Below, piece after piece: positions 19,004 to 61,291 of a stretch of 64,000 bases of DNA. The stretch lies in the NCBI GenBank assembly GCA_012441205.1, contig GCA_012441205.1_4705.1; one strand, written 5' to 3'. Made by a program: the position numbers and the translations under genes. The first letter of the stretch is position 1. Every line of letters starts with the position of its first letter. Under the pieces are notes generated by a model that was not told the origin of the DNA, searched no databases, and saw nothing but the letters and a program-made list of their open reading frames with translations. Source of the DNA: a phage.

Positions 19004-19041
19004 AAGCACTCCAATCATGGGGCGGTAACCGCCCCCATCAG

Positions 19042-25122: not shown

Positions 25123-25371
25123 TTAAAATGCATTGATTGGACTGTTCAACGCTTTATCACGGATTTGAATCGCCGCCAGCATTGCTTTCTGGTACGAATC
25201 GTAGGCATCGACAGAAACAGTCGTATCAACCAATTCCTTTAATGCGGATTCAGCCGCTTTTACACGGACGCGGAACTTGGTGATTGCGTTATCTTTGTTA
25301 CGATAAACCGTGATGTGGTGCAGCGGTTGAACTTTGGTTTTAACGGATTTAGTTGCTTTGATCGTTTTCAT
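25123..25371 (-). CDS. hypothetical protein (82 aa)
   Basis: ORF with AAGGAAA SD. Confidence 0.5.
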   Translation of the reverse strand: MKTIKATKSVKTKVQPLHHITVYRNKDNAITKFRVRVKAAESALKELVDTTVSVDAYDSYQKAMLAAIQIRDKALNSPINAF

Positions 25372-25464
25372 GATGATTTCCTTCTTTATTAGGATGATTA
25401 CATTTAGTCAGTTTAACAGCATAAGCCCTTCCCACCTTACGCAGGAAGGGCATACGGATTTGTT

Positions 25465-25962
25465 TTACGTGTGTCGTCGTTTACCAAAGAAAATGTGGCT
25501 ATCTACCACGGTGATATTGGTAGCATGTTTTCTGAAATGTTTAGGGCGAAGATGTTTCGCGTTAAAGAATACGGCTCCTCGTGTTGGGTCGGCTTTATGG
25601 TAAGCCGCAATGTCAGTATAACGTAATGTTGCGACCTCTCGTGCTATTGCTCTTGCTCGCTCAAAAGCAGCATGATCGCGTATGACAATACGCCTTTGTT
25701 TTGTCCAGGGGAATTGACCTCTTTGCAGTACGACGTCTCTGACGTTCGTAGGGAATCGGTAGTCCATAGATCGATTATGTATTAAAAACGCCACGGAGTA
25801 TTGCCCTTTTACAGATTCGCCTCTGGCTTCCATATACACAGCGCATGCGACGATCTCTTTCCGGCAATCGATTCTAGGTCCTGCGTTCACCGATGCTTGA
25901 CTGAACGGTGTGATAAGCAACATAACAAGCCCTAAAATCAACGTGTGTAAAATACCTTGCAT
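25465..25962 (-). CDS. secreted cell-wall hydrolase, SleB/CwlJ family (165 aa)
   Basis: signal peptide MQGILHTLILGLVMLLITPFSQA; AVYMEARGE...GQYSVAFLIHNR...FP...GQF matches the family signature. Confidence 0.6.
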   Translation of the reverse strand: MQGILHTLILGLVMLLITPFSQASVNAGPRIDCRKEIVACAVYMEARGESVKGQYSVAFLIHNRSMDYRFPTNVRDVVLQRGQFPWTKQRRIVIRDHAAFERARAIAREVATLRYTDIAAYHKADPTRGAVFFNAKHLRPKHFRKHATNITVVDSHIFFGKRRHT

Positions 25963-26215
25963 CTTAATAACCTCACGATAAGGTGCTGTCCACTGGCGTC
26001 TTGATAACGCATCCCGTCTATCGGGTTGTTCTATTCAGCGGGCAGCAGGTTAGCGTCAGATGTTTGCCCGACATCCACGACAGAAATAAACGGTACTGAA
26101 AATACGGTCTCCTCTGGTTTGGCAATAAACATAACGTTGGATAACAGAACCCATTTCCCGCATCCAACGCGGTAAAGGTGTACATCGTTTGAAGTCATAT
26201 AGTTTCTCAAAGATG

Positions 26216-26536
26216 TTAACCTCTACCGTCGAGCCATAGGTTGTATTTATCCCGAACATACGGCTCACGATAAATACGTCGATAGACTTGATGCGGTATA
26301 AACTTGCAATGTACGAGTTCGTCGCTTAATTTATGCCGTCGCTCCATACCGTTGTGAATACGACGTATCTCCCGGATATTAAAGGTTGTTTTATTCAAGA
26401 GAATAGACATAATGGCGGATCGATGATCCAGATTAAAGATCGCCATCACGCTTCGTATCTCGCGTAAAACAACTTCTCTATCGACAAGGATGCGATTAGT
26501 TAACTTAAGATTCTCCGTGATACCCATAACCTTCAT
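26216..26536 (-). CDS. hypothetical protein (about 106 aa; start uncertain)
   Basis: track ORF 26216..26620 overlaps the upstream gene; internal ATG with SD chosen. Confidence 0.35.
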   Translation of the reverse strand: MKVMGITENLKLTNRILVDREVVLREIRSVMAIFNLDHRSAIMSILLNKTTFNIREIRRIHNGMERRHKLSDELVHCKFIPHQVYRRIYREPYVRDKYNLWLDGRG

Positions 26537-26876
26537 CCTCGACACGTCGACACATCGGTAAAAATAAACACCAGCTTGTTGCACTGAGGACCGCCGTTGC
26601 GACGATATTTGCGATATCACTCAATCGAGCATCGGCTTGCCACATAACAAGCATGAAAAGAACGTACGCGAACCCATACACGACAAACCGTTTTATGTTA
26701 CGCGTCGACCATGTACAAATATACAAAAGGGGAAGCTGCCCTATAACACAAACGATGGTTCGGATAACGTAATAAACGCGTTCCGTCGTTGTTTCAAAAT
26801 CGATATTCGTTGCAGAAATCCCAATCATTATAAAAGTGAAAATGAAATAGATTTTTGCGTATGTCTTTAAACTCAT
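26505..26876 (-). CDS. integral membrane protein (123 aa, about 4 TM helices)
   Basis: hydrophobic segments; GGGAAAAG SD. Confidence 0.5.
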   Translation of the reverse strand: MSLKTYAKIYFIFTFIMIGISATNIDFETTTERVYYVIRTIVCVIGQLPLLYICTWSTRNIKRFVVYGFAYVLFMLVMWQADARLSDIANIVATAVLSATSWCLFLPMCRRVEDEGYGYHGES

Positions 26877-26892
26877 GGCTTTTCCCGATCGT

Positions 26893-27087
26893 TTATTTGT
26901 GTTTTCCTACATTCCTCAACAAGGTAACGATAACGAATACCGCTATCATCAAGAAGACGAACCATAACCCTACGTTAATTCGGGCAGCAGGTTCATCGAC
27001 CATGAAGAACATCATCCCACAAAACCCAATGACCATCCATGCTAGAACCATCCCCGTTAATCCCCGTAGTAGCATATGTCCCATCAT
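26893..27087 (-). CDS. small two-TM membrane protein, holin-like (about 64 aa)
   Basis: two hydrophobic helices and basic C-terminus; track ORF starts at TTG 27126, ATG at 27087 chosen. Confidence 0.4.
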   Translation of the reverse strand: MMGHMLLRGLTGMVLAWMVIGFCGMMFFMVDEPAARINVGLWFVFLMIAVFVIVTLLRNVGKHK

Positions 27088-27260
27088 GAACTCATTCTTA
27101 CTTTTTCTGATAAAGCGATGATTCAAATTTTAGAAACATCACTAACGCGAATGCGAGTAATAACGCACGTACCCACATACCTCCTTGACAACTGTTGTAC
27201 AACATAAAGACCAGAGCGATGCCGCCCATATGCAGGCGGCACTTATCGAACAGTGTTGGT

Positions 27261-27470
27261 TTATACATAAGAGATCAATCGTTGAATGATTTTTACTTTG
27301 CCTTTGCCTGGACCTTTCTTGCGGCGATTCAACAGACGGATACTGTTTCCAGTTACGGTGTCGCCATCATAATCAGCCCGGAACTGTGATAAAAAAGCAG
27401 GTTGTATCTGATCGACACCAGGATTGCTGTGGAAAGGATTGAGACTTAAAAGAGGGTTAGCTGGAATCAT
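27261..27470 (-). CDS. hypothetical small protein (69 aa)
   Basis: track ORF starts at TTG; ATG at 27470 with AAGGA SD. Confidence 0.4.
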   Translation of the reverse strand: MIPANPLLSLNPFHSNPGVDQIQPAFLSQFRADYDGDTVTGNSIRLLNRRKKGPGKGKVKIIQRLISYV

Positions 27471-27488
27471 CGTATTGTCCTTACTCAA

Positions 27489-33619: not shown

Positions 33620-34122
33620 GCTAAAATTCCCTCATTACCTAACAGTCGATTACGGTGACGTCGGTACATTTGACAAAGTGTTGTGATTTGATAAAGTTTG
33701 TTATAACGTAATTCGATACGTTTTTGCACCTCTTTCCATGAAAGTTTATCATATTGCCGATAACGATGGATTTCATTCAACATCCGAAGACGCGTAGGAT
33801 CGGTATTCTTTATTGTTACGAGCTTCACGCGTTGGTATCCGCGCTGCAACCCCGATTCAGAATACGTAATGCCGAACTCATCCTGAATGATAGTAATGAT
33901 CTCCCGCCATCGGCGCTTCTCGCCGTCACGTAAATGGACAACCCGCGATAAGATATCGTTCCGATTACGATGACTCAGTTTAATGTTAAGCATTGAAGCA
34001 ATCGCGCTAATTGCTCTCTGACTCCGCCCTAACGCCTCACCGATCTCTTTCGATGTCATGACGCCAGCGTTTCGACGTATGAATGCGATTTCGGTTGTTG
34101 TGTATTCTTTACCTGCCGCCAT
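33616..34122 (-). CDS. HTH DNA-binding protein, paralog 6 of tandem array (168 aa)
   Basis: TEIAFIRRNAGVMTSKEIGEALGRSQRAISAIASMLNI and a second HTH-like repeat. Confidence 0.55.
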   Translation of the reverse strand: MAAGKEYTTTEIAFIRRNAGVMTSKEIGEALGRSQRAISAIASMLNIKLSHRNRNDILSRVVHLRDGEKRRWREIITIIQDEFGITYSESGLQRGYQRVKLVTIKNTDPTRLRMLNEIHRYRQYDKLSWKEVQKRIELRYNKLYQITTLCQMYRRHRNRLLGNEGILA

Positions 34123-34586
34123 TTCTTACCACGCGTGTTATAATAGTAACGTTGACAAAGATGTGTGTGATGGTACTCCCGTTTGAACTCGACATTGATA
34201 ATGCGAGCAACTTCTCTCCAGCTAACCCCTTCATGTCGAAGTGTCGTGATACGGTCTGAAATTTTGCACCATTCACCAGGATCGTATCGTCGCAGTTTAT
34301 GACGTCGTATTACGGAGGCGACGCTCGCTTTCGAGCGACCAAGATGATTCGACATTCGTTTAATCGAGTATCTATGGATATTATCGCGAATATAGGAAAG
34401 CTCGTTGTCTGTATACGTCGCGTTGGTTCTCGGCGAAGGGAACAATACGTATAACTTATTCTTAATCGCGCTTTCCGTGCGTTGAAACACGGTAACCAGT
34501 TCACTAATCGATGGTCTAGGTATTTGATACGCGTAATTCTCGAGGCGTGAGAGTTCCTCATCTGTCCAGCGGCGGTATTTGCGCAT
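34056..34586 (-). CDS. double-HTH protein, paralog 5 (about 176 aa)
   Basis: WTDEELSRLENYAY...ISELVTVFQRTESAIKNKL and YTDNELSYIRDNI...IKRMSNHLGRSKASVASVIRRHKL; start set at ATG 34586 with AAGGAG SD. Confidence 0.6.
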   Translation of the reverse strand: MRKYRRWTDEELSRLENYAYQIPRPSISELVTVFQRTESAIKNKLYVLFPSPRTNATYTDNELSYIRDNIHRYSIKRMSNHLGRSKASVASVIRRHKLRRYDPGEWCKISDRITTLRHEGVSWREVARIINVEFKREYHHTHLCQRYYYNTRGKKWRQVKNTQQPKSHSYVETLAS

Positions 34587-35052
34587 GGGCAACTCCTTTG
34601 TTTTTCGTGTAATAACACCAACGTTGATACAACGCATGTTTATTCGTTGTAATCCCAAATTTAACAACAACGTCGTATGTGATAATATTCCAATTTTGGG
34701 TGACGTTAAGTCGTTCCGCGATAATCGCTTCCCGTTCTTGCTTGGTTAACGCACGACGAATTCCATTAAGCCGTATAAACTGACGAACCGAGTCATACGA
34801 ACGGTTTAAATCATACGCAATCTCCCTCAGCGATTTTTGTTTGATTACGGACTTGATGTACGCACGTTCTTCTTCCGTATACGGTCGATGCTTCTGGCGT
34901 TGACGTATTCCCAAACGCCCCAGACACGCGTCGATGCTGGCGTATGTTCGTCCTGTCCGTTGTGCGATTTCATCAATCGTCAGCGGCGTGTTCAAGTACA
35001 TGTGTGTAACATCTTTTAACTCATCGTTACGCCACGGCCGAGGTCGTCCCAT
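34558..35052 (-). CDS. double-HTH protein, paralog 4 (164 aa)
   Basis: WRNDELKDVTHMYLNTPLTIDEIAQRTGRTYASIDACLGRLGI and YTEEERAYIKSVI...LREIAYDLNRSYDSVRQFIRLNGI. Confidence 0.6.
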   Translation of the reverse strand: MGRPRPWRNDELKDVTHMYLNTPLTIDEIAQRTGRTYASIDACLGRLGIRQRQKHRPYTEEERAYIKSVIKQKSLREIAYDLNRSYDSVRQFIRLNGIRRALTKQEREAIIAERLNVTQNWNIITYDVVVKFGITTNKHALYQRWCYYTKNKGVAHAQIPPLDR

Positions 35053-35530
35053 CTTGTATCCCTCTTTTCTTTCTATGATGCCACCAACGCTGATAAACAG
35101 CTTGCTTCGTCCGTGTTATGCCAAAATGCGCATTAACCCGTTCAGCAATGTGGTACCAATCCTGCGTTTCTTCTAACAATGCATCAACGAAGGCTATGAA
35201 GATCTTAGTATCATCCTCGCTTAACCGCTTGAAGCCATGGCGGTGTGCTATTGTTCGAATACTGTTTGGATCTCTGTTTAAATCGCGTGCGAGCTGTTTG
35301 TAACTTTTGTGCTTACAGTGTAGTCTGATATGTTCTAATTCATCGACGCTGAAACGTTTATGCGGTTTACGGCGTTCGACGTTTAAGTACCTCAACCTTG
35401 ATTCGATTGCACCGTACGTCGTTTCCATGATTTCCGCGATTTCACGGATTTTTAATTTCGGGCGACGATCGTATAGTTTCAGCAACTGCTCATCGTACTT
35501 ACGATTCCATCGTCGTACTGGGGGTTTCAC
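35027..35530 (-). CDS. double-HTH protein, paralog 3 (167 aa, GTG start)
   Basis: WNRKYDEQLLKLYDRRPKLKIREIAEIMETTYGAIESRLRYL and FSVDELEHIRLHC...YKQLARDLNRDPNSIRTIAHRHGF; AGGAGAAA SD before GTG. Confidence 0.55.
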   Translation of the reverse strand: MKPPVRRWNRKYDEQLLKLYDRRPKLKIREIAEIMETTYGAIESRLRYLNVERRKPHKRFSVDELEHIRLHCKHKSYKQLARDLNRDPNSIRTIAHRHGFKRLSEDDTKIFIAFVDALLEETQDWYHIAERVNAHFGITRTKQAVYQRWWHHRKKRGIQDGTTSAVA

Positions 35531-35532
35531 AA

Positions 35533-36012
35533 CTAGATTTCTCCTGTTCTACGCGTTTTTAATGCTTGAGTGTAGTAAAGGGTATGAACACCGCTTAACG
35601 TGTAATGGGTGTTAAATTCGTTATTGATGATATTCTGTATTCTCTCCCAGGTTTTCTTCTCTTTTCTAAGAGTATGTATTCGGTGATAGATCATCTCTCG
35701 ACGTTGCGCTTTGCACGCGATAATACCGTAGCGGTAGCAGAGTTTAGCGATCGCATCCACGCTACGATTGAACATTACCGCGGCTTCTTTCACGCTGTGC
35801 GTCTTGAGATAATCGGCTAACATCACGCGTTCTTCGAAACAACAATAGCGGTGACGCGACGTGAGTTTCCAGCGCTTGCGATTACGGTTAATTCGACCTT
35901 GAACCGAACCTTCCGTTCGGCCAAGTCGTACCGCAATATCTTGCATCGGTATACCGTTTCGGTACAGGGTAATCAACATCGCATCTTCTTCGGGTGTCCA
36001 GTCCTTGACCAT
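35533..36012 (-). CDS. double-HTH protein, paralog 2 (159 aa)
   Basis: WTPEEDAMLITLYRNGIPMQDIAVRLGRTEGSVQGRINR (SANT/Myb- or GcrA-like) plus second repeat; GGGGTGG SD. Confidence 0.6.
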   Translation of the reverse strand: MVKDWTPEEDAMLITLYRNGIPMQDIAVRLGRTEGSVQGRINRNRKRWKLTSRHRYCCFEERVMLADYLKTHSVKEAAVMFNRSVDAIAKLCYRYGIIACKAQRREMIYHRIHTLRKEKKTWERIQNIINNEFNTHYTLSGVHTLYYTQALKTRRTGEI

Positions 36013-36024
36013 AATGCCACCCCA

Positions 36025-38688
<2,664 letters not shown>

Positions 38689-41914: not shown

Positions 41915-42181
41915 TTAAAAAGTACCCATGATCGATAGGGCAATATGGTCTTTGTTCACACGCGCATTTAACGACATATCGAGACCGTTTTTCTTAATAT
42001 GCCAGCGTGCCACCAGTTCCGGTTGGTCAACGGAATACAGCCCTTCTCGATGTTGATTCAACCATTTAGCAATTGGATGCAGTTTATCGGGATTGACCAC
42101 ACCCAATTCCAACCCACCGGGTGTTAATGGTTTAGAATAAAAGTCAAGTGCGTTCCGTAAAAAGTCATCCTCGATGCTCAT
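41915..42181 (-). CDS. hypothetical protein (88 aa)
   Basis: ORF; ATGA overlap with upstream small ORF. Confidence 0.5.
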   Translation of the reverse strand: MSIEDDFLRNALDFYSKPLTPGGLELGVVNPDKLHPIAKWLNQHREGLYSVDQPELVARWHIKKNGLDMSLNARVNKDHIALSIMGTF

Positions 42182-42294
42182 CGTAGCATACCTACCATGC
42201 CGATTACAGCAAACAGTACGCCGACAGCGCTATACGCAAGCAGCGCTTTAGCAACCCAAGATTTTATTTCCGTATACTCTTCATTATTCACCAT
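42178..42294 (-). CDS. small single-TM peptide (38 aa), not in the ORF track
   Basis: ATG preceded by GAGGTGAGAC; encodes MVNNEEYTEIKSWVAKALLAYSAVGVLFAVIGMVGMLR; stop overlaps next start. Confidence 0.3.
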   Translation of the reverse strand: MVNNEEYTEIKSWVAKALLAYSAVGVLFAVIGMVGMLR

Positions 42295-42371
42295 GTCTCA
42301 CCTCGTTCGGTTATTGTCTGATCTCATACCTTTACTTAAGCGTATCCCCCGTCATTAAGACGGGGTGTTTA

Positions 42372-42746
42372 TCACCAGAGACGATTACCTTCCTCGTCCC
42401 ACCAAGCAATCGCTCGTGTCGACTCGAATGTGTTAGGGCGTAACGTCATGCCCTTGCGGTCAACGATTAACCGCAACTCAGTACCGAACCACTCAATCGA
42501 GATAAACAAACCCTTCCGAATGATTGCTTGATAACCTGATAGCCGCTCAAAGAGTCGTTGAAAGATCTCATCATGCCCACACGACACTAATGCTTCTGAA
42601 TAGCGTCGCATCGATTTTGCATCGCTAGGTAAACGTGTTTTACAATCCCACCATAACACAGCGTACATCAGTGCAGCATTACGCAATCGTAACGATTGAA
42701 CTGGTGTTAGCTGTCGTCCTTCAACATCATCGATAATGACATACAT
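42372..42746 (-). CDS. hypothetical protein (124 aa)
   Basis: ORF. Confidence 0.55.
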   Translation of the reverse strand: MYVIIDDVEGRQLTPVQSLRLRNAALMYAVLWWDCKTRLPSDAKSMRRYSEALVSCGHDEIFQRLFERLSGYQAIIRKGLFISIEWFGTELRLIVDRKGMTLRPNTFESTRAIAWWDEEGNRLW

Positions 42747-42979
42747 CGCATCTTATTCCGCGCTTGTTTCCTTAACATGGACACATTCCGCATCGATAGT
42801 CACACCGGTAGAACGATGGGTCTCGTTGGTAGAATCAAATCCGCTGTTGAACAACACTGCGAATGTGTTATTATCCATACGAGCAAAGGTCTCCGCAATA
42901 CGATCGGGATGAAAATCAGTGCGGCTGATGGTCGATTTCACAAAAACTCCTATAAACAATTTAATTATTGGTATTAAGA

Positions 42980-43465
42980 TTAAAGCAGGATCTGCGGACA
43001 GCAGCATGATTCGTAACCACCTTCATGTGGTAACGTATTGCTGGTGTCAGGCCAAACGAGCTGAATACCCGCAACCTTTTTACCATATCGAGCGAAAGCC
43101 GCTATCGCATACACTTCGTTGAAGGATTCAATATCCTCTATTTCACGCACGTCAAGACGCAAGGTTTCACCCGTACCTTTCAGAGTTAGATTGCCATCGA
43201 ACGCGCCTAACGGGATGGTCTTTGCCTTCACCATGAAGTTACCCAGTTTGTTGATTGCTGAACCGAGAGCAGGGCAATAACCGGATACGAAGATTTCCGG
43301 CATTCCGTGTTCGGTTAGACCAACAGTATACATAAAGCCAGGCTCGTCGCTTCCCTCATCAGGAGCGACACTGATAATAGCCCATTGCTTTTTCTCGATA
43401 TATTCTTCGATAAAATCGTCCAGTTTTGAAAAATTGTTTTCATTAAGTTTAACTGTGTTACTCAT
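42980..43465 (-). CDS. hypothetical protein (161 aa)
   Basis: ORF with AAAGGA SD. Confidence 0.55.
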   Translation of the reverse strand: MSNTVKLNENNFSKLDDFIEEYIEKKQWAIISVAPDEGSDEPGFMYTVGLTEHGMPEIFVSGYCPALGSAINKLGNFMVKAKTIPLGAFDGNLTLKGTGETLRLDVREIEDIESFNEVYAIAAFARYGKKVAGIQLVWPDTSNTLPHEGGYESCCCPQILL

Positions 43466-43751
43466 GTTCTTTATCCTTTAATGCGTTTTCTAACCAGCGG
43501 ACATAACTTTCACGATAAAGGTGAATATGTCTTTTACCGTCGCGAAAGTTAGGGTCAATAAGATGAATCGCAGCATGGGTTGAGGTCGTCGCATGCTGTA
43601 AATGTTTTCGTGTTAATCGCCCAAGTTTTACCCAACGTTGAATATACCGTGCGTCTGCCGCTAAACAGGTACGTTCATCGATGAAAGGTACCAATACCTG
43701 AACGATACTACCGTAATACACCATCGAACTGTTGAACATCTGCGTCTCCAT
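43458..43751 (-). CDS. hypothetical protein (97 aa)
   Basis: ORF. Confidence 0.5.
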   Translation of the reverse strand: METQMFNSSMVYYGSIVQVLVPFIDERTCLAADARYIQRWVKLGRLTRKHLQHATTSTHAAIHLIDPNFRDGKRHIHLYRESYVRWLENALKDKEHE

Positions 43752-43769
43752 GCAAATGGATGGGGCGGA

Positions 43770-44078
43770 TTAGTGAAGAATTACCGTTTGCGATCCGTTC
43801 TCGTATTCGGTAAGTAACTCGTCATACCGACGATCGACTACCTTGATTGCATTATCGATCTCTGTCGTGTCTGATACAACAGATCGTTTCGCTTCCAGTC
43901 GATATACTAACGCATCACGCATACCCTCGGCTGCAGCGAGTTCACAGGTTGCTTGATGTTTATTATCCGAAAAGACGAAGAATGGTTTGTTCTCTTCATC
44001 GGCCAGGAAGTAGTTACGAATCTCAACCAACCTTTCATCTGGAACCAGTTCACATTTGTTTTCGTTCATTTTCATCAT
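43770..44078 (-). CDS. hypothetical protein (102 aa)
   Basis: ORF. Confidence 0.5.
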   Translation of the reverse strand: MMKMNENKCELVPDERLVEIRNYFLADEENKPFFVFSDNKHQATCELAAAEGMRDALVYRLEAKRSVVSDTTEIDNAIKVVDRRYDELLTEYENGSQTVILH

Positions 44079-44083
44079 CTCTC

Positions 44084-44416
44084 TTAAAGTTTTAACGTAT
44101 TGACGCCGCTTATAAAGGCGTTGATTTCATTGTCAATATTACCAGTTTGCTCGATAATCTTCTCCACGGTCAATCTTGGTTTGTTGTAAGCGATACATAC
44201 AGCATCGGGACCATTTCCATACATGCTCGCGACGTAAATTCGAAGTTCTTTTAAACGATCAAGTAACAACTGTGTGATATCCAGAACTTCTTCTGTGGCG
44301 GTCTGTGTGTTGCATTCGCGTAACTTGTGTTCTAACAGCGAAGTCGCAGCATCGAGCATGGATGTGTATTTACGGTAGTTATAAATATCAATTATAGCTG
44401 TCTGATTCATATACAC
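44084..44416 (-). CDS. hypothetical protein (110 aa)
   Basis: ORF. Confidence 0.5.
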   Translation of the reverse strand: MYMNQTAIIDIYNYRKYTSMLDAATSLLEHKLRECNTQTATEEVLDITQLLLDRLKELRIYVASMYGNGPDAVCIAYNKPRLTVEKIIEQTGNIDNEINAFISGVNTLKL

Positions 44417-44421
44417 GTTAT

Positions 44422-44790
44422 TTATTTATCGGGGTCTGGAAAATAGTAAAATCGCCAATGCAACATAGAAATCGCATTTCTTATTCGATTCGCACGAACA
44501 CGGCGTCCGAGAAAGGACTTGTAGCAAGAATCGCAATCCATAAACAACTCATGGCTCGATTTCATCAGAACCACGATATCTCTTATATACGAATTGCAGT
44601 ACTCGATAAACGGGTCTGTATCGTACGTATATTTCCTCGCACTACCTATCCCCAACCCTCTATTTAACTCACGACAATTTATCATGAGCTTCACATAACG
44701 GATAAGCCGAACGAAGTCACGTAAATTACGATTAAACCAATATCGATACCAAAATGACTGTATACTCCGAACAGTTCTATTTAACTTCAT
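44422..44790 (-). CDS. hypothetical basic protein (122 aa), in AT-rich island
   Basis: ORF; R/K/Y-rich. Confidence 0.45.
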   Translation of the reverse strand: MKLNRTVRSIQSFWYRYWFNRNLRDFVRLIRYVKLMINCRELNRGLGIGSARKYTYDTDPFIEYCNSYIRDIVVLMKSSHELFMDCDSCYKSFLGRRVRANRIRNAISMLHWRFYYFPDPDK

Positions 44791-45418
44791 TGATACCTTC
44801 TATTAGTTGTACAGCAACTTCTTTTTCGGTGCTATAAAAGAACTTGCGATGGAACTGAACAAGAAGTTTTTCGAATTTACATTGAACGATCTTTTTGCGT
44901 TCGATATGACCCAGGGAGAGCAAAGCACCCATGCAACGTACCGCTTGTTCGAGAACTTGTTTCGCGGTATCGTGATCGTCCGGTAACGGTAAATCTTCCT
45001 CATCGTCTTTAGCGATAAGGCGTCTGATGATGTTATCGATACGTATCTCATCACCGTTAATAAAAGCCCCCTTCTCCCAGTCATCGAATCGTTGATGGAT
45101 TCGACGTTGTAAGTTGGCCCTGTCTTCCATTAACTCTTTCAACTGGCTTTCTAAATGGGATACGGTACGGCGGTCGGTTTCAGTGAAGTTTTCCGATTCT
45201 TTGTACCACCAATCATTACGCGATAGTAAATCGTTAACGCGCGAAATCGTCCGACGACACTCACTAACAAGCCCGTCACCATTCGGTAGCTCTGTACCAA
45301 AATAGCATTTGTATTTATAACGCATAACACGGATTAAACGTTTCGCTAGAAAACCTTGCCTTTCCAGTTTCTTCTTCAGTTGTGTGTATTTCTCTTCTTT
45401 TGTTTCCATTAATTCCAT
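44777..45418 (-). CDS. hypothetical protein (213 aa), in AT-rich island
   Basis: ORF. Confidence 0.5.
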   Translation of the reverse strand: MELMETKEEKYTQLKKKLERQGFLAKRLIRVMRYKYKCYFGTELPNGDGLVSECRRTISRVNDLLSRNDWWYKESENFTETDRRTVSHLESQLKELMEDRANLQRRIHQRFDDWEKGAFINGDEIRIDNIIRRLIAKDDEEDLPLPDDHDTAKQVLEQAVRCMGALLSLGHIERKKIVQCKFEKLLVQFHRKFFYSTEKEVAVQLIEGINEVK

Positions 45419-45807
45419 GATGTTGTACCTCGTTCAGCAATCAGGAGAGTCGTGGTTGTGCTTTTCACTAATCTATTAAAGTCTTGATATATCCGCCTGA
45501 GGGATGATTTCAAATCACAATAACGGCTGAAATAAACCTTCAAGTCATCTTTTGTCACAGTCTCCGTATTTATTTTCGTAGAAACACCGAGATCGATAAA
45601 CTCTTTTCTTAATTGGGATAATTCATCAAGAAGTCGATGATGGCTTAGATAAATAACAGATTTATCGGATAACAACTCGCCGGTTATCCGGCTCTGGCGT
45701 TCATCGAAATATTGGAGCCGCCATTCAATTCGCTTACGTAATTTATCAAGTAAATCAACAAAAGCGGTATAGCTGTTAACGGCTAGGTTAACTTGACTCG
45801 TTATCAT
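45409..45807 (-). CDS. hypothetical protein (132 aa), in AT-rich island
   Basis: ORF. Confidence 0.45.
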   Translation of the reverse strand: MITSQVNLAVNSYTAFVDLLDKLRKRIEWRLQYFDERQSRITGELLSDKSVIYLSHHRLLDELSQLRKEFIDLGVSTKINTETVTKDDLKVYFSRYCDLKSSLRRIYQDFNRLVKSTTTTLLIAERGTTSWN

Positions 45808-46154
45808 TCCACTTTCTCCGTTATATGCTTTAAACTGTTACGTATACTTTTCAATCGATGGTTAAATCCGGAACGATAACATTTCCGTACATCCCGTGCT
45901 GATCGCGCTTTATTCGCCTGATTAAGCTGCTCATTCACCTGCGACGCTATACGTAAACGCTCTAATAAAGACCTCAACCGAACGACAACCAACGGCTGTT
46001 CTTTCACCTTCTCTAGTTTGAGTAAAGAGTCAATATGAAACTTTATTTCGATAATCTGATTCCTGTTTTTGCGGTACTGATGAATATACCAACATCGACG
46101 AAAATAGGCGATGTTTAGCATCGGGTAGATCCTTTTCAACGCTACCTCCAACAA
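45804..46154 (-). CDS. hypothetical basic protein (116 aa), in AT-rich island
   Basis: ORF. Confidence 0.4.
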   Translation of the reverse strand: MLEVALKRIYPMLNIAYFRRCWYIHQYRKNRNQIIEIKFHIDSLLKLEKVKEQPLVVVRLRSLLERLRIASQVNEQLNQANKARSARDVRKCYRSGFNHRLKSIRNSLKHITEKVE

Positions 46155-46339
46155 TACATCGGATTAGGCGCTTTATGGTATTTATAGATACCTACTTTCT
46201 TCTGTCTGCCTTTACCCGGGCCTCGTTTAATACGTTTGTTATAAACACGATCCAAATATCGATCAACGATAAATCGGGATAAATACACCGGATCGATATA
46301 AGCCAGGGTACCCGCTTCTGTTTCTTCGAGACATTGCAT
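46142..46339 (-). CDS. hypothetical small basic protein (65 aa); possibly a fragment
   Basis: short ORF; next ORFs follow in shifted frames. Confidence 0.3.
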   Translation of the reverse strand: MQCLEETEAGTLAYIDPVYLSRFIVDRYLDRVYNKRIKRGPGKGRQKKVGIYKYHKAPNPMYCWR

Positions 46340-46365
46340 GCGTAACCTCTCTTTCCTCTAAAAAG

Positions 46366-46572
46366 TCAGTCCAACATAAGCCATGGCATCGCTTTCGCGA
46401 TAGAATCCACCGCAGCATTTGCGATCCTTCGTTCGGTGGTTGGTACCACATGCGCCACGAACCGTTTTCCTTTATTGCAACCTTTCTTGTGTTTTCCTTT
46501 GACTAAACGAACACCAATCATGTCGTTGATAACATGATTTAGTATATGGCGCTGTAGAGAATTAATCATCAC
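46366..46572 (-). CDS. hypothetical small basic protein (68 aa); possibly a fragment
   Basis: short ORF. Confidence 0.3.
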   Translation of the reverse strand: MMINSLQRHILNHVINDMIGVRLVKGKHKKGCNKGKRFVAHVVPTTERRIANAAVDSIAKAMPWLMLD

Positions 46573-46738
46573 TTTTACTCCAGGCCGAGAAGATTCTCGG
46601 TTTTAGTTCTATCTGTCCGCATATCCAGGTGTATCTCCATTTACCTTTACGAGGACCTTTCTTATTTTTAACACCTATCAGAATACGATAGGGATATGAC
46701 CAAGCCATTCTAAACTCCTAAAATAAATCTCGATATTC

Positions 46739-47032
46739 TTAATGCAGTTGCTTCTTAAAACCTAATTTAAGAAGCGTCATTCTCTTGTCGATGGTATCTA
46801 ATGCTTCCAGCAAGGATTCACGCTGTTCTTTCGTAAGCATATCGACGCGTAGACGTTCGTTAATTTCCGCTTTAAGCTGTATAGGAAGGGTTTGTGTAAG
46901 TATGCTATCAGCCTCCATCTCGTAACTATTTTTCGGTGTGGGTAATGCTTCAGTAACACCAGTGAGATAAAAACCGATAGTGGTTACTCGTTCATCCATT
47001 GCTTCTAGCAGTTCAGAACTTACCTCATCCAC
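46739..47032 (-). CDS. hypothetical protein (about 97 aa, GTG start)
   Basis: track ORF start lies inside the thyA terminator hairpin; GTG at 47032 has GGAGAA SD. Confidence 0.45.
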   Translation of the reverse strand: MDEVSSELLEAMDERVTTIGFYLTGVTEALPTPKNSYEMEADSILTQTLPIQLKAEINERLRVDMLTKEQRESLLEALDTIDKRMTLLKLGFKKQLH

Positions 47033-47048
47033 GATAGTTCTCCGTATT

Positions 47049-47068
47049 AGGGTGGGCGTACCCACCCT
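47049..47068 (-). terminator. hairpin after thyA
   Basis: AGGGTGGG-cgta-CCCACCCT. Confidence 0.4.
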
Positions 47069-47079
47069 CAGTTGTTAAT

Positions 47080-48099
47080 TTACACCGCCACCTTAGCCTT
47101 GATAGCGGGGTGTGATTGATATCCGACGAACACAAAGTCTTCGTAACGGTAATCCGTAATACTTTCTGGTTTACGTACGATTGTTAGCTTCGGTAATGGA
47201 TACGGCTCACGACTAAGTTGTTCTTTAACCTGTTCGAAATGGTTGTGATAGATATGACAATCTCCACCTGTCCACACGAACTCACCAACGTCCATATTCA
47301 GCTGTTGGGCAAGCATATGTGTTAACAACGAGTATGATGCGACGTTAAAGCTCCAACCCAAGAGCGTGTCGCACGAACGTTGATAAAGCTGACAGGATAA
47401 AGCACGTGTTGGTACGTTATGCGCATTCAACCAGAGTTCTGTTTCACTGTGTCGTACATCATCCGTAACCCACTGGGTTCTTAGTACGTCATTGCGCTGG
47501 ACATAATCAACGCGTTCATCGATCGTGAGTTCGTGGGTATAGAACTGATAGAATGAATGGCACGGAGCGAGATGCATATCGTCTAAATCACCTACGTTCC
47601 ACGCGCTAACGATGATTCGTCGAGAATCAGGATCTTCTTTGAGTTGACGCATCATGTTTGCGATTTGGTCGTGGTGTTTAACATACAAGAGATGTTTGAC
47701 CATACCGGCGTCAACAACACCGCAATACTCATAGCCGCGTTGCATCAACTCACGAGTACGTTCTGTATCATGCGGAACAACCACTTTGTAGTCAATCCAT
47801 TCTCGCCATTGTCTGCCGTAAATCGGTCCTAGATTCCCTTCCTTATCAGCCCATTCATTCCAAATACGAACACCGTTATCTTGAAGATAAGCAACGTTTG
47901 TGTCGCCGTTAAGAAACCAGAGCAGTTCGTGGATAACGCTCTTAAGGTGAATCTTCTTGGTGGTTACCAGCGGAAATCCTTTCTTCAAGTCAAAACGCAT
48001 CTGACGCCCGAATACCGAACGGGTCCCGGTGCCCGTGCGGTCGGCCTTATCGCGACCGTTATCCATGATGTCTTGCAAAAGGTCCAAATACTGTTTCAT
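47080..48099 (-). CDS. thyA: thymidylate synthase (339 aa)
   Basis: active-site PCH motif and [11 protein letters not shown]...[14 protein letters not shown] signature. Confidence 0.9.
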
Positions 48100-48299
48100 T
48101 TTAATCCTCTAAGTGTTTCGAGTAGTTCCTGAAATTTATAACGATATTTAGGATTGCTTAACGTGTAACAGCAGCCATGTAACACGTTATACGCGTAATC
48201 AACTTGTAAACCATGAACCTTCGGATCCGATGATAGATTCAATGGCACATCATCAAAAATCCACGCTTCAATGTTCTTCTTAGATTCCTTCGTTAACAT
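48096..48299 (-). CDS. hypothetical protein (about 67 aa)
   Basis: track ORF starts at GTG 48308; ATG at 48299 has GAGGTGA SD. Confidence 0.45.
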
Positions 48300-48372
48300 C
48301 GTTTTCACCTCGTAGTAAAAATAAATAGAGTTTTTGTCGAGACGCCCTAATTACTTACAACGTAGGTTATCC

Positions 48373-49257
48373 TCAATAACGACCGTAGCGTTCCTCGAGC
48401 CGTTTTGGTTTTCTCAGAAGGCTATCTTTAAGTGGTACGACGTCGATATCAACACTCTCTGAGTAATAGCCGTTAGAACTACCATACCAACGGATAACAA
48501 CACAACCCTTTGCAGTACGGATATGGTAAAATGTCCATTGTATACGTTCGCTGTAATAACCGTAGTTATCGGTTCTTTCCTCGGTTCTTTCTTCAGCACT
48601 GAGTATCTTTTCACCGATGATATCATTAATATCGCCGTCAATGTCTTCAAGATACACCTCTTCGCAGCAATCCTGCTGATGACAGAATTCGACAACGTTT
48701 CCATCACCACGATAGAAAAGAAGGGCGATACCGTTTCGTAATTGCTCGCTCGTTACATCAGACACACAATGCAAACTTTTATCGTCGGTAATCACCAAGA
48801 CGTTGTTGATTACATGTCCGGCAAGCGCTCCGATCTTATTTACCGTGATAATCGGACGAACCGGTTCAGATTGAACGATAGGAATACGGACACAACCAAT
48901 TAAAGCCATCCGTCCTTTCTTTGGTCTAACCGCAAGGTAAGGTGATTTTCTTGGGTGGTTATGCAGACGTATTTCTAATTCGTCAAATTTAATCCCGTAT
49001 ATACCTAAGAAACGATCGAACAACCGATGAAACTCATCTGTTGCTTCTTCCAACGTTATGGTGTCTACCGTGAGTTTATGTCCCCTGAACACCCGGGTTA
49101 TATCGATAACGTCCAGTGTTTTAAAATGTATTTCCGTAAGGGGGTGATTTGTATTTTCCAGGTAAGTAATTGTTCTTTGAACCACGATTTTAGGTTGCGC
49201 ACCTTTAAAACGTTTCAGGTATTTAACACGATAGCGTGTATGATCTGATGTTAACAT
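48373..49257 (-). CDS. hypothetical protein (about 294 aa)
   Basis: track ORF start lies inside an upstream terminator hairpin; ATG at 49257 has GGAGAGGAG SD. Confidence 0.55.
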   Translation of the reverse strand: MLTSDHTRYRVKYLKRFKGAQPKIVVQRTITYLENTNHPLTEIHFKTLDVIDITRVFRGHKLTVDTITLEEATDEFHRLFDRFLGIYGIKFDELEIRLHNHPRKSPYLAVRPKKGRMALIGCVRIPIVQSEPVRPIITVNKIGALAGHVINNVLVITDDKSLHCVSDVTSEQLRNGIALLFYRGDGNVVEFCHQQDCCEEVYLEDIDGDINDIIGEKILSAEERTEERTDNYGYYSERIQWTFYHIRTAKGCVVIRWYGSSNGYYSESVDIDVVPLKDSLLRKPKRLEERYGRY

Positions 49258-49319
49258 TTTAATCTCCTCTCCCGACTTCAGAGAATTCTTAAAATCCGTT
49301 AGTTTTGATAGATAGGGTA

Positions 49320-49353
49320 AGACGGCATAAAAGCCTCCCATTACGGGAGGCTT
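49320..49353 (-). terminator. intrinsic terminator after CDS 49365..49634
   Basis: AAGCCTCCC-GTAAT-GGGAGGCTT followed by TTTTAT on minus strand. Confidence 0.5.
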
Positions 49354-49364
49354 CATTAATCAGC

Positions 49365-49634
49365 TTATTTCACGTTAGAATCGAGAACCTCACGAACGGT
49401 TTTATCCGTACAACCACGAGCGATGTATGCATTAAGATCATCACGTAATTTACGCATCGTTGTTTTATCCGCATCAGAAACATCTGACTTGGTAAGACGG
49501 AATGCGATTGCATCGCGAATTTTATTCAACGTTGCTGGGTTATTACGCTGTTCTGCAAATACCGCTTTGATGAACTTATCGCTATCTTTCGAAGCAATAG
49601 CAGCATCAAGAATCTCAATATGCTTTTCAGACAT
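49365..49634 (-). CDS. hypothetical protein (89 aa)
   Basis: ORF. Confidence 0.5.
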   Translation of the reverse strand: MSEKHIEILDAAIASKDSDKFIKAVFAEQRNNPATLNKIRDAIAFRLTKSDVSDADKTTMRKLRDDLNAYIARGCTDKTVREVLDSNVK

Positions 49635-49685
49635 CTTCTTTCCTTTATTAAACGATCATCGTCATATTCATTGCGCGTGACGTCG

Positions 49686-50915
49686 TCACTTCAGAAGCTT
49701 AGACATCGCCATGCTTCGCGCCTTCGCAACGTCATACGCATCCATGATCGCGTCACCGATAGCGGTATGACGGATCAACGGAATACCCATATCTGGATAC
49801 TCTTTGGTACCTAAGATGGATACCGGTTTGTCTTGATATGCGGCAATCATCGAACGGATATCCTGAACCTGGTTATAACGACAAACTGGCTTAAAGCCTG
49901 CTTTACGGAACCAATGCTCTAATTGAGGCCAATCTGTTTCACCGCGAGCAAGATAATAGAAGGTATCCTTACCGTAGTAATCAGTAAACACTTCACGAAT
50001 TGTGTTAATAAACTCGTTTACTTCGGCGATGGCTTCTTTATAATCCATCACTTTACTATGTTGAAAACAATAGTCACGCGCTTCCTTCGGTGCTTTGGTT
50101 TGCCACCATTCTACCGTTGATTCACTGATACGACCACCGTCGGCGATTTGACCGTGAACGTCAGGGAAGATATCTATACGTGGACCGTTAGCGATGGATT
50201 CCGGATTAGCTAGATCAAAGAACACCATACCGATTTCCAGCAGTACCCCGTTCTTTTCCAGACTGAGATTCTCAACATCCAGACAAAAAGCGGGTTTCTC
50301 TACCGTTGAAAGATCAAAACGTCCCTCATATCGTGGTGCTGGCTCGGCACCAAGGAACGTCTCTCGGATGAACTGTGAGAATGTTATATTCTCTGCTACT
50401 AAATCAATACCCAATTTACTTAACAAAGGTATAAGTTCACGATCGTTCTGCTGAATTAGCAACATTACTTGGTCGTTGACACAACAACTAATTGAGTAAA
50501 AGAGATGAACGATATCTAACGGTTTGTACGGAGCCTCAAAAATATGTGTCCGGAACGATTGGGCTAGCGCCTTATGCGTTTCTTCGCGATGATTCATCAG
50601 TCGGTAAATAGCGCAGCGCAGATAATGTCGAAGTGTTATCTCGTGAAGATGTGACGTATCTTCTTGAAATAACGTCATGAAACCGTGATATGTATAATAC
50701 TCTCCTCTTTTAATTTCTTCGTGGAGTTCTTTGTTCCCCTTTATTTCTTCTGGTGTTATCGGGTCGATCTGATCATGGATAACGTTGAGTAGATCATCGC
50801 CGTGTACCTTAAACAGTTTTTCAACGTCAAGATTAGGTAATGTCGCAATCGCCGCGTACATTAATGTTTCTGCGGGATTAAGTTCTTTATTGTCGATTGT
50901 GATGGTTAAAGCCAT
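49686..50915 (-). CDS. protein with C-terminal DEDDh-type 3'-5' exonuclease domain (about 409 aa)
   Basis: FCLDVENLSLEKNG (Exo I-like D..E) and HTAIGDAIMDAYDV (Exo III H-x-A-x-x-D); N-terminal half unassigned. Confidence 0.5.
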   Translation of the reverse strand: MALTITIDNKELNPAETLMYAAIATLPNLDVEKLFKVHGDDLLNVIHDQIDPITPEEIKGNKELHEEIKRGEYYTYHGFMTLFQEDTSHLHEITLRHYLRCAIYRLMNHREETHKALAQSFRTHIFEAPYKPLDIVHLFYSISCCVNDQVMLLIQQNDRELIPLLSKLGIDLVAENITFSQFIRETFLGAEPAPRYEGRFDLSTVEKPAFCLDVENLSLEKNGVLLEIGMVFFDLANPESIANGPRIDIFPDVHGQIADGGRISESTVEWWQTKAPKEARDYCFQHSKVMDYKEAIAEVNEFINTIREVFTDYYGKDTFYYLARGETDWPQLEHWFRKAGFKPVCRYNQVQDIRSMIAAYQDKPVSILGTKEYPDMGIPLIRHTAIGDAIMDAYDVAKARSMAMSKLLK

Positions 50916-59836: not shown

Positions 59837-61291
59837 ATGAAACTCAAACAAAGCTGGAAAGACGAACTTCTCGCGTTAGTAAACAGCAAAAACAGTTTAC
59901 AACTGACATTAGACGATGTAAAATTTGAACTAACGGCACCGGTAAGCGAAGTGCCTGGAACGGTCGTTGTTACAATCAAACCGAACGATAATAGTCGCTA
60001 CTTTAACGAGCAGTCTCTGACCTACATCCGTCGAGACATCGCTAAAAACTTCACCGGGATCCCGTTACGGGTTATCGTTAAGCAAGATACCGCTGTAAGG
60101 GATATCATCAATACGATTGCTGAACGTTACGGATTGGTATTTGACACAGCCGTCGACTTCCTCGAATCCGAGCTGAATAAACAAATTACGTTCGCAGACA
60201 CCGGTATTAAAGACATTACGGTTCCGGTTGCAAACACGTCTTATGTTTGGGCGGGTAATCTTCAGTTCAATATTGCTAACGATACGTTAAGCTTGATTAC
60301 TATCATCAAGAAAACCGATCTTACGAATCTGGTTTATCTGGATGGTGTTGAAGCTGACACATCTGGTTCGTTACTATTAGCAACCGCAGCACTTGTTAAC
60401 GAACACGTAAATGAACCGATGGTTGAAAACGAAGATATCGTTAATGAATTTATTAACGTTCTTAATACTCTAGCCAAATATGGTGACATAACCGGCGATG
60501 AATTAGATGCCGCCTTACAAGCGTACGATGAAGCAGAAAACAGGAATAAAACCACGGTAATAACTCTTGGTGATATCCAGTGTGTTGCAACAGAAAAAGA
60601 CGATTGGGAAATTGGACGTTTACGCGGTCAGATGGTTCTCGCGCTCAAATCCGATAAATACCCGGAGCCCGATAACACGTTCAGGTTGTTTACGAATGGT
60701 GGTGACGTATCGCTAACGTTAAACACAATGAAAGATATAAGTATCGATTGGGGTGATGGGAATAAAGTAACGTTGGATGCTGAAGAAAGATACGCGCACC
60801 ACACATACGCCGACAATAACCAGTACCAAATCGAAATTGTGTCTCGTACGGACCCAGATGTGCTGCGACCAAATTATATTTCTGGGAGTGAGATAACCGA
60901 AGTAATTCACTGGGCTACTACTTCAACAATAGCTCTGAATTTTGTTGGATGCGATAATTTAGCGACTGTTCCAGATGAGATCCCAACTTCGTGGACAACG
61001 TTGGACAGCATGTTTGAAAGTTGTACGAATTTGAATGATCCGTCTATCTCTAACTGGAATACAAGTAACATCACATCAATGAATGGTATGTTCGGCGGAT
61101 GCACTAAATTTAACCAACCTTTAGCTGCCTGGGATGTCAGCTCAGTAACTGACATTGGTGGTATGTTTAACGGATGCAACAGTTTTAACCAAGATTTAAG
61201 TGGGTGGCGATTACCGTCAGGAGTAACCCACGACAATTACGATAGTGGTGCTTTCTCGTGGCAGACGGAACATAAACCGACGTTCCAGTAA
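59837..61291 (+). CDS. receptor-binding protein: N-terminal anchor domain, PKD-like motif and C-terminal BspA/DUF285-type repeats (484 aa)
   Basis: anchor domain aligns with 17249..19003 and others; ISIDWGDGNKVT...HHTYADNNQYQI; repeats NWNTSNITSMNGMFGGCTKFNQPLAAWDVSSVTDIGGMF. Confidence 0.7.
   Translation: MKLKQSWKDELLALVNSKNSLQLTLDDVKFELTAPVSEVPGTVVVTIKPNDNSRYFNEQSLTYIRRDIAKNFTGIPLRVIVKQDTAVRDIINTIAERYGLVFDTAVDFLESELNKQITFADTGIKDITVPVANTSYVWAGNLQFNIANDTLSLITIIKKTDLTNLVYLDGVEADTSGSLLLATAALVNEHVNEPMVENEDIVNEFINVLNTLAKYGDITGDELDAALQAYDEAENRNKTTVITLGDIQCVATEKDDWEIGRLRGQMVLALKSDKYPEPDNTFRLFTNGGDVSLTLNTMKDISIDWGDGNKVTLDAEERYAHHTYADNNQYQIEIVSRTDPDVLRPNYISGSEITEVIHWATTSTIALNFVGCDNLATVPDEIPTSWTTLDSMFESCTNLNDPSISNWNTSNITSMNGMFGGCTKFNQPLAAWDVSSVTDIGGMFNGCNSFNQDLSGWRLPSGVTHDNYDSGAFSWQTEHKPTFQ

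Follow-up and report, generated by a model that had tools for sequence, protein, structure and literature searches.

Downstream of thyA, a cluster of small open reading frames (ORFs) raises the question of whether it is the debris of a gene or mobile element or a set of working genes. We analyzed this locus in a 64,000-nt stretch of phage DNA (the window), which shares 93 to 96% DNA identity by megablast with the Escherichia jumbo phage Goslar; on this identity, its source is a close relative of Goslar, a giant, nucleus-forming E. coli phage. Seven minus-strand ORFs (o122, o213, o132, o116, oC65, oB68, and oA48) fill positions 44422 to 46708 (the island). An earlier note on this DNA had placed the island just downstream of thyA (47080-48099, minus strand), and this was confirmed, with a single acidic, conserved 108-aa ORF (o108; 46739-47065, minus strand) intervening. 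The island genes overlap or sit no more than 26 nt apart, an operon-like packing that extends to thyA on the upstream flank; judging from this spacing, the island would be transcribed together with thyA. Sigma-70-like sites were fewer in the array than in shuffled sequence, and strong-stem terminator-like sites were found neither in the array interior nor in the interval between thyA and the island. As detailed below, the island is best read as a cluster of intact small genes, ordinary in kind and changing fast, and as the wreck of neither a gene nor a mobile element.

Orthologous genes were identified in Goslar (vB_EcoM_Goslar, NC_048170, 129024-131585) as gp134 to gp140, with identical order and strand and 93 to 96% DNA identity, every one annotated merely as a hypothetical protein. 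Relative to Goslar, the window carries one gene more, the 132-aa o132, which lies between its orthologues of gp136 and gp135.

The case for gene decay rested on three consecutive short ORFs, o116 (45804-46154), oC65 (46142-46339), and oB68 (46366-46572), all on the minus strand. Their coordinates do place them in three different frames, as the earlier note had stated (end coordinates modulo 3 of 2, 1, and 0), an arrangement that three successive genes adopt by chance 2 times in 9. The decayed gene itself did not survive scrutiny. A separate Shine-Dalgarno sequence and start codon serve each of the three, as well as the adjoining oA48 (46562-46708, minus strand): AGGAG 6 nt upstream of ATG for oA48, GGAG upstream of an ATG or GTG for oB68, GAGAGG upstream of ATG for oC65, and, for o116, either a TTG at 46154 (GGAGG 5 nt upstream) or an ATG at 46121. 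No frame-shifting indels were found between these ORFs and their counterparts in Goslar, and Goslar and the majority of ten metagenomic relatives carry intact versions of all four.

Substitution patterns point the same way. Across the island ORFs, dN/dS relative to Goslar ranged from 0.03 to 0.30, and oA48, oB68, and o116 showed an excess of synonymous changes in their own frame only, with dN/dS near or above 1 in the other frames. The 48-aa oA48 (Goslar gp139), a basic, aromatic-rich mini-protein of pI 10.2, had a dN/dS of 0.04 against Goslar. The most conserved gene of the island, found in all relatives examined, is oB68, which encodes a basic protein of 67 or 68 aa (pI 10.7); its dN/dS was 0.03 to 0.22, with P values for the synonymous excess down to 2e-7. 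For o116 (Goslar gp136), a very basic protein of 105 to 116 aa (pI 10.6) that, judged by sequence, looks helical, constraint was likewise confined to its own frame (P = 3e-6 versus the relative L003). Selection was least evident for oC65 (Goslar gp137), a basic 65-aa protein with a dN/dS of 0.16 to 0.45 against close relatives; against L003, the sole divergent relative that retains the gene, its own frame (0.48) was not distinguished from the other two (0.57 and 0.62). The result is mostly a clarification: the apparent broken gene is a set of real mini-genes under selection.

These observations bear directly on the proposal that the ORFs at 45804 to 46572, with or without oA48, are frameshift fragments of one ancestral gene, such as a homing-endonuclease gene left by a mobile element. 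The ORFs are indeed short, neighboring, and in three frames; the region is AT-rich; homing elements occur nearby in relatives; and single genes are truly decaying in some relatives, for example in L002 and L012. Yet besides the separate starts, the absence of frame-shifting indels, and an own-frame purifying selection that is clear for oA48, oB68, and o116 (for oC65 only against close relatives), an intact, longer homologue was found neither in Goslar nor in the ten metagenomic relatives, and the identical separate genes are kept in relatives down to about 65% protein identity. Nor were nuclease or other domains detected in the single ORFs or in the concatenations oB68+oC65 and oA48+oB68+oX62+oC65+o116. 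We consider descent from a single broken gene to be largely refuted already and give it hardly any credence.

The homing-endonuclease remnant suggested by the earlier note was not recovered either: Pfam, PHROGs, and NCBIfam gave no nuclease match in the island, in agreement with that note's own failure to find an intact nuclease motif, and Rfam gave no match there. The same Pfam library does pick up GIY-YIG and NUMOD3 in thyA of L003, which contains an intron-like intervening sequence with a GIY-YIG/NUMOD3 ORF; none of the Rfam group I intron models reached threshold on L003. In L005, thyA carries a Hint+LAGLIDADG intein at the catalytic Cys. The td gene of phage T4 carries a group I intron with I-TevI, and the interruption of thyA by a GIY-YIG insert or an intein in L003 and L005 resembles that case and that of LAGLIDADG inteins. 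However, the elements of the relatives lie in thyA, outside the island, and thyA of the window is uninterrupted. The homing-element idea applies to the neighboring thyA of relatives, not to the island.

Overlap between neighboring ORFs in different frames could also suggest that oA48 and oB68, possibly with oC65, are fused into one polypeptide by programmed ribosomal frameshifting. The two ORFs lie in different frames, their stop (oA48) and start (oB68) overlap by 8 to 11 nt, and this junction contains the A-rich AGTAAAAGTG. Against such a fusion, a canonical slippery heptamer is absent, oB68 has its own GGAG and start codon, the junction in L003 is another overlap of the ATGA type, and in L012 oA48 is truncated while oB68 is intact with its own start. 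Of the alternatives weighed here, we regard this one as the least probable, and we treat the ORFs as independently translated genes.

The earlier note had described the island as AT-rich, and within the window AT-richness does reach its maximum there, although the shift is small, about 4 points, and is partly general to small genes. GC content was 0.409 in the island compared to a window mean of 0.452 (standard deviation of 0.019 among windows of the same size); only 1.5% of same-size windows were as low, all of them overlapping the island. GC at third codon positions was 0.413 versus 0.455; among all runs of seven successive genes, this value falls in the lowest 4%. Across the window, small genes had a GC content of 0.433, compared to 0.459 for large genes. 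The description of the encoded proteins as small and very basic likewise holds in part. Six of the seven have a pI of 9.3 to 10.7, with o213 at pI 7.7, but by crude ORF calls a pI above 9 was found in 64% of small ORFs across the window, and eight basic ORFs in a row occur at 25123 to 27488, a longer run than that of the island. Since basic pI is common among the small ORFs of this phage, charge by itself says little about the island proteins.

Comparison with relatives showed where the island does vary. Between thyA and the next conserved genes, relatives differ by whole-gene gains, losses, and truncations. While oB68, o213, and o108 were present and intact wherever a contig covered their position, oA48 was present in Goslar and L002 to L007, intact in L013 as a diverged 51-aa form, extended to 93 aa in L003, and 5'-truncated in L012. 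An internal deletion disrupts oC65 in L002, and the gene is missing in L006. In L002, a CGA-to-TGA nonsense change follows codon 72 of o116. An additional HTH-like ORF follows thyA in L002, L006, L012, and L013. At the far end of the island, o122 (44422-44790, minus strand; dN/dS of 0.24) encodes a 122-aa protein that is basic (pI 9.9) and has many aromatic and arginine residues. It is 97% identical and intact in Goslar (L001, 3421-3789), where the coding sequence is missing from the reference annotation; it reaches 229 aa in L003 through an N-terminal insertion, measures 131 aa in L002, and is absent from L012 to L014.

The clearest case of turnover is o132 (45409-45807, minus strand), a 132-aa ORFan and presence/absence cassette, with the lowest GC content of the island genes (0.381; 0.361 at third positions). 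Goslar has about 10 bp in place of window positions 45408 to 45803. Of about 11 genomes, 3 had the gene (the window, L004, and L003); it was missing from Goslar, L002, L005 to L007, and L012 to L015. The ends of the insertion coincide exactly with an ATGA start/stop overlap on one side and, on the other, with the ATG of the following gene, o213, whose first residues differ along with the state of the cassette (MELME in the window and MKDIAE in Goslar). No repeats flanking the cassette were found, no homologue of o132 was recovered from a phage collection by tblastn, and no paralogy with o116 or o213 was detectable; paralogy between o116 and o122 was not detectable either. The presence or absence of o132 is clean; the gene lacks a nuclease signature and lies between genes of an operon-like array rather than in an intron or intein.

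The earlier note's suggestion that the island may be a horizontally acquired moron is partly supported, in the sense of an accessory region that was acquired. Large phages have plastic or hyperplastic regions and morons, for example in the variable periphery of T4-like genomes. The island resembles these in being a cluster of small ORFans between conserved genes, AT-richer than the core, with presence or absence of whole genes. Its composition differs modestly from that of the rest, o132 occurs in some close relatives only, and the island as a whole is an accessory region with gene turnover. However, a classical moron carries its own promoter and terminator, whereas the o132 insertion falls precisely where start and stop codons overlap in an operon-like array, and we detected neither: in a scan whose promoter search covered sigma-70-like sites, no such promoter and no strong terminator-like site bracketed o132 or the island. 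One minus-strand terminator-like site lies inside o132 (45692-45679), with a stem of only 5 bp.

Taken together, these data make it probable that 44422 to 46708 is a lineage-specific plasticity zone of seven tightly packed, independently translated small genes that form an accessory set, functional but individually dispensable. Lineages would gain, lose, and truncate island genes through recombination at gene boundaries and deletion. This comparison maps a gene-turnover hot spot beside thyA in a phage that serves as an experimental model for the nucleus-forming phages, and it points experimenters to the dispensable genes, namely, o132, oC65, and o122 and, to some extent, oA48 and o116.

To characterize the island proteins, we searched profile, sequence, and structure databases. 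Pfam, PHROGs, and NCBIfam gave nothing credible for the island ORFs, for o75 (a distant ORF described below), for the 93-aa L003 form of oA48, or for the concatenated ORFs. In the phage collection, tblastn with oB68, o213, and o132 returned Goslar alone or noise, and IMG/VR and an index of 5.8 billion proteins returned Goslar-like sequences only. In the literature searched, there were no functional, expression, or phenotype data on Goslar gp134 to gp140, and likewise no functional data on gp102. The 213-aa o213 (44777-45418, minus strand; Goslar gp135) is a near-neutral helical protein with a dN/dS of 0.11, and its homologues, down to 65% identity, are restricted to Goslar-like contigs. Its AF2 model (pLDDT of 78.8) consists of long helices packed as a bundle, for which Foldseek searches of PDB and BFVD retrieved only generic helical bundles (best E = 0.15). 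For oB68, the AF2 model had a mean pLDDT of 58, not usable for a fold search, with the basic loop at residues 22 to 42 unstructured.

One resemblance of oB68 was weighed in detail, namely, that it could have arisen by exaptation of the N-terminal part of a class I glutamyl-tRNA synthetase (GluRS)-like catalytic domain and could then mimic GluRS or titrate one of its partners. The top two PDB matches of the oB68 profile were both GluRS (E = 0.21 and 1.3), hhalign against E. coli GltX gave P = 3.8e-4 with residues 31 to 67 aligned to GltX 30 to 66, in N-terminal register, and tblastn gave E = 0.006. These matches are insignificant at database scale, however, and the score weakened against a profile of GltX, GluQ, and GlnS (P = 0.002). 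The HIGH motif is absent, the gapless register placing DMIG opposite HVGG, and oB68 ends at residue 68, far before KMSKS. In addition, oC65 does not continue the alignment, the Pfam tRNA-synt_1c model gave no match, and other parts of GluRS were undetectable in the region. We judge a synthetase origin of oB68 to be highly improbable. A resemblance of "PTTERR..." to bS21 was also dropped, since PDB matches at E values up to 10 included no ribosomal protein.

A recurring Lys/Gly-rich motif, K-K-G-[PC]-x-K-G-K, links several of the mini-proteins. It occurs, flanked by hydrophobic segments, in the adjacent oA48 (KKGPRKGK), oB68 (KGKHKKGCNKGKR), and oC65 (KRGPGKGR, 46205-46228) and in a distant ORF outside the flagged stretch (o75/o69; 27261-27470, minus strand; Goslar gp102), where RRKKGPGKGK follows ADYDGD. 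The six-frame translation contained four protein motif matches; by a rough estimate from composition, far fewer than one would be expected by chance. Within each family, the motif is invariant. By blastp, oC65 matched the ORF at 27261 to 27488 (E = 1e-3) over I[DQ]Px[YF]LS[RQ]F, a segment common to both that precedes the basic motif, and on this similarity oC65 is a paralogue of o75. For oA48, oB68, and oC65, homology beyond the motif was not demonstrable by hhalign (P = 0.007 to 0.14). A HMMER scan of 1.84 billion representative proteins with an oC65+o75 profile found only four Goslar-like small proteins and three repeat artifacts.

The underlying DNA recurs as well. The pattern AARAAAGG-N7-AAAGGNARA matched three times in the window, compared to 0.01 expected, and a 33-nt direct repeat, 73% identical, connects oA48 (motif DNA at 46640-46663, minus strand) with its sister copy in oB68 (46465-46488). 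Rather than a protein motif, the recurring element might be a DNA or RNA signal, AAGAAAGG-N7-AAAGG, acting, for example, as an internal ribosome-binding or pause site or as a site bound by a protein; its purine-rich, Shine-Dalgarno-like character, its excess over expectation, and the similarity of the two island copies would all fit. All three copies, however, are in frame and encode K-K-G-x-x-K-G-K; in relatives, Gly, Lys, and Arg codons have changed synonymously and the peptide is preserved, as is seen in the o75 motif codons between the window and Goslar; and oC65, the fourth copy, has the same peptide with different DNA. A nucleic acid signal is very unlikely in light of this conservation at the peptide level.

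Among nucleic acid-binding proteins, Lys/Gly-rich basic loops occur in the KOW motif (ribosomal protein L24 and NusG), in AT-hooks, and in HMGN-type segments, and the island motif is like these in being a short K/G-rich basic segment between hydrophobic segments that could form strands. The KOW/L24 resemblance was not supported: when the family alignments of oC65/o75 and of oA48 were compared with E. coli L24 by hhalign, P was 0.14 and 0.42, respectively, with the motif unaligned, and the Pfam KOW and AT-hook models had no match in the island ORFs. Unlike an AT-hook, the motif does not contain an R-G-R-P core.

By inference, the basic island proteins most likely bind nucleic acid as dispensable accessory proteins. 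A flexible basic loop would make the contact, with either nucleic acid or the acidic surface of a partner, in a host takeover or regulatory role during infection, and the invariant hydrophobic C terminus of oB68 (AKAMPWLMLD) would act as a protein-binding peptide. A more specific and speculative proposal, which we hold to be unlikely, is that oA48, oB68, oC65, and the gp102-like gene form an undescribed mini-protein family specific to Goslar-like nucleus-forming phages, in which the motif loop is a dedicated module for binding nucleic acid or for targeting (bringing small proteins to the DNA or RNA of the phage, for example, or to the phage nucleus) and MPWLMLD of oB68 docks on a partner. For these otherwise opaque ORFans, the recurring basic motif offers an inexpensive and testable way to approach function.

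The stretch at 44422-46708 is filled by seven ORFs, all on the minus strand and named here by length: o122 (44422-44790), o213 (44777-45418), o132 (45409-45807), o116 (45804-46154), oC65 (46142-46339), oB68 (46366-46572), and oA48 (46562-46708). The sole megablast match to 44000-47200 was Escherichia phage vB_EcoM_Goslar (genus Goslarvirus), a jumbo phage of 237 kb that forms a nucleus. Identity was 93.5% across 45804-48372 and 96.3%, without gaps, across 43000-45407; Goslar has no counterpart of 45408-45803. The island genes are orthologs of Goslar hypothetical proteins: gp135 to gp139 and one unannotated gene correspond to this stretch, all annotated products are hypothetical, and the literature searched reported no data on them. 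Goslar NC_048170 carries no CDS at about 129362-129730, yet the counterpart of o122 is intact there and 97% identical, leaving a gap in the annotation; this 122-aa product is conserved under purifying selection.

An earlier note had described an AT-rich island of very basic proteins. Island GC was 0.409, about 2.3 SD below the window mean of 0.452, and GC3 was 0.413 versus 0.455. Equally low GC occurred in just 1.5% of same-size windows, every one overlapping the island. No part of the window is richer in AT, yet the shift is only about 4 points; across the window, GC was 0.433 for small genes and 0.459 for large ones. Likewise, six of the seven proteins have a pI of 9.3 to 10.7, but so basic a character is common, being found in 64% of small ORFs (crude calls, window-wide), and a longer run of basic ORFs lies at 25123-27488.

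The three ORFs at 45804-46572 do occupy three different frames, which had suggested a decayed gene; three independent neighboring genes would do so by chance with a probability of 2/9. A Shine-Dalgarno sequence, properly spaced from the start codon, precedes each of oA48 (AGGAG), oB68 (GGAG), oC65 (GAGAGG), and o116 (GGAGG). Neighbors among them share a few bases or are separated by at most 26 nt, as in translationally coupled operons. Relative to Goslar, where all ORFs are intact, no frame-shifting indels were found, and Nei-Gojobori dN/dS was 0.03 for oB68, 0.04 for oA48, 0.16 for oC65, 0.30 for o116, 0.11 for o213, and 0.24 for o122. In more divergent relatives, synonymous changes were strongly in excess in the annotated frame (oB68 versus L006, P = 2e-7; o116 versus L003, P = 3e-6), with no such excess in the other two frames, where dN/dS was about 1 or more. 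The weakest case is oC65. Among divergent relatives only L003 retains it, and in that comparison dN/dS in the oC65 frame (0.48) was not distinguished from that in the other two (0.57 and 0.62). The ribosome-binding sites and starts, the lack of frame-breaking indels, and the own-frame constraint indicate that oA48, oB68, oC65, and o116 are separate genes under selection rather than pieces of a decayed one.

Searches with oB68 and o213 returned Goslar-like sequences only, and the comparison set comprised ten metagenomic contigs carrying matches to them (L002 to L007 and L012 to L015). Among these relatives gene order is kept and gene content varies. Wherever a contig covered their positions, oB68, o213, and o108 (a 108-aa ORF at 46739-47065) were present and intact. 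o116 is present in all relatives, but in L002 it carries a CGA-to-TGA nonsense change with the downstream sequence retained. In that contig (2112-2540), oC65 has an internal deletion of ∼140 nt, and the pair looks like genuine recent pseudogenization of two island genes. oC65 is missing from L006. In L012, oA48 lacks the start and the 11 initial codons; it is diverged yet intact in L013, and measures 32 aa as called in L015 and 93 aa in L003. o122 is absent from L012 to L014, and encodes 131 aa in L002 and, via an N-terminal insertion, 229 aa in L003. In L002 (1170-1454), L006 (1061-1345), L012 (8560-8835), and L013 (2516-2782), thyA is immediately followed by an additional ORF of 88 to 94 aa that has a helix-turn-helix-like segment at its C terminus (faint HTH_23 match); the window and Goslar lack this ORF.

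o132 is found in the window, L003, and L004 and is missing in Goslar, L002, L005 to L007, and L012 to L015. Its cassette has exact boundaries, the ATGA overlap with o116 on one side and the ATG of o213 on the other; the first residues of o213 covary with o132 presence (the exception, L006, has a MELME-type start without o132). In composition and presence/absence o132 resembles a moron, but it has no detectable promoter and terminator of its own. These comparisons point to a zone of plasticity made up of dispensable accessory genes, resembling the ORFan-rich, plastic periphery known from large phages; gene decay occurs in some lineages but not in the window.

The idea of a homing-endonuclease remnant in the island was rejected; it fits the neighboring gene thyA (47080-48099, minus strand) instead, a homing hot spot in relatives. 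In L003 (75-2202), an insert of about 1.1 kb with a gene for a GIY-YIG/NUMOD3 protein splits thyA after SCQLYQR; in L005 (1987-4032), the catalytic Cys of thyA is the site of a 342-aa Hint/LAGLIDADG intein. Two linked haplotypes span both sites: MHLAP-C with a particular 10-residue segment (window, L002, L003, and L005; in L003 the second site is split by the intron, exon 2 reading SADV) and MALPA-C with SCML[LT]ARSQD (Goslar, L004, L007, and L012). The two most divergent patches between the window and Goslar thyA fall exactly at the insertion sites and could accordingly represent endonuclease-resistant alleles or co-conversion tracts.

When the six-frame translation was scanned with a regular expression, K-K-G-[PC]-x-K-G-[KR] appeared in oA48, oB68, oC65, and a 69/75-aa ORF at 27261-27488, the counterpart of Goslar gp102. 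The DNA pattern AARAAAGG-N7-AAAGGNARA occurred 3 times versus 0.01 expected, always in frame, and the oA48 and oB68 copies share 73% identity across 33 nt. The motif is invariant inside each ortholog set while its codons change synonymously in relatives, which argues for selection on the peptide. Similarity among oA48, oB68, and oC65 is confined to the motif; between oC65 and the gene at 27.3 kb, paralogy extends past it (blastp E = 1e-3), with I[DQ]Px[YF]LS[RQ]F in common. In the latter (27261-27470, minus strand), KKGPGKGK is immediately preceded by ADYDGD, which resembles the RNA polymerase beta-prime metal-binding motif NADFDGD. This gene lies close to the ortholog of the Goslar endolysin, among genes for predicted membrane and secreted products, and a 96-aa metagenomic variant (P0022) has a different N terminus.

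The island ORFs had no matches in Pfam, PHROGs, or NCBIfam, and an exhaustive HMMER search, covering 1.84 billion representatives with a profile of oC65 and the ORF at 27.3 kb, returned only Goslar-like small proteins. AF2 folded o213 with fair confidence (pLDDT 79) into a bundle of long helices, for which Foldseek gave nothing better than E = 0.15 against PDB and BFVD. The model of oB68 is of low confidence (pLDDT 58), its basic segment unstructured between predicted helices. The best PDB matches of the oB68 profile were two glutamyl-tRNA synthetases (E = 0.21), and hhalign placed it in register with the N terminus of Escherichia coli GltX (P = 3.8e-4). We dropped this lead: the match weakened to P = 2e-3 against a GltX/GluQ/GlnS profile, the HIGH motif was absent, and oC65 did not continue the alignment. 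A suspected similarity to the L24 KOW motif was not supported by hhalign.

Together, these data support seven small genes, independent of one another and under selection, that form an operon-like array downstream of thyA within a zone of rapid gene turnover, and a conserved Lys/Gly-rich motif common to four mini-proteins; we consider this structural and evolutionary account probable. The products would be accessory proteins coexpressed with nucleotide-metabolism genes. The basic ones might use a flexible basic loop to bind nucleic acid or else an acidic surface, with the invariant hydrophobic C terminus of oB68 docking onto a partner. A specific nucleic-acid-binding role is considerably more tentative, and we regard it as rather doubtful.

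Elsewhere in the window, five large paralogous ORFs (8296-10908, 16563-17273, 17249-19018, 22652-23482, and 59837-61291) share their N-terminal 150 to 180 residues at 26 to 46% identity, two of them being alike across 450 residues. Four tandem paralogous ORFs of 115 to 205 aa occupy 34056-36372 (minus strand; neighbor blastp E of 1e-11 to 0.04). Across 42000-50000, sigma-70-like promoter matches were depleted (9 versus 18.9 ± 4.5 in shuffled sequence), consistent with a phage that uses its own RNA polymerases.
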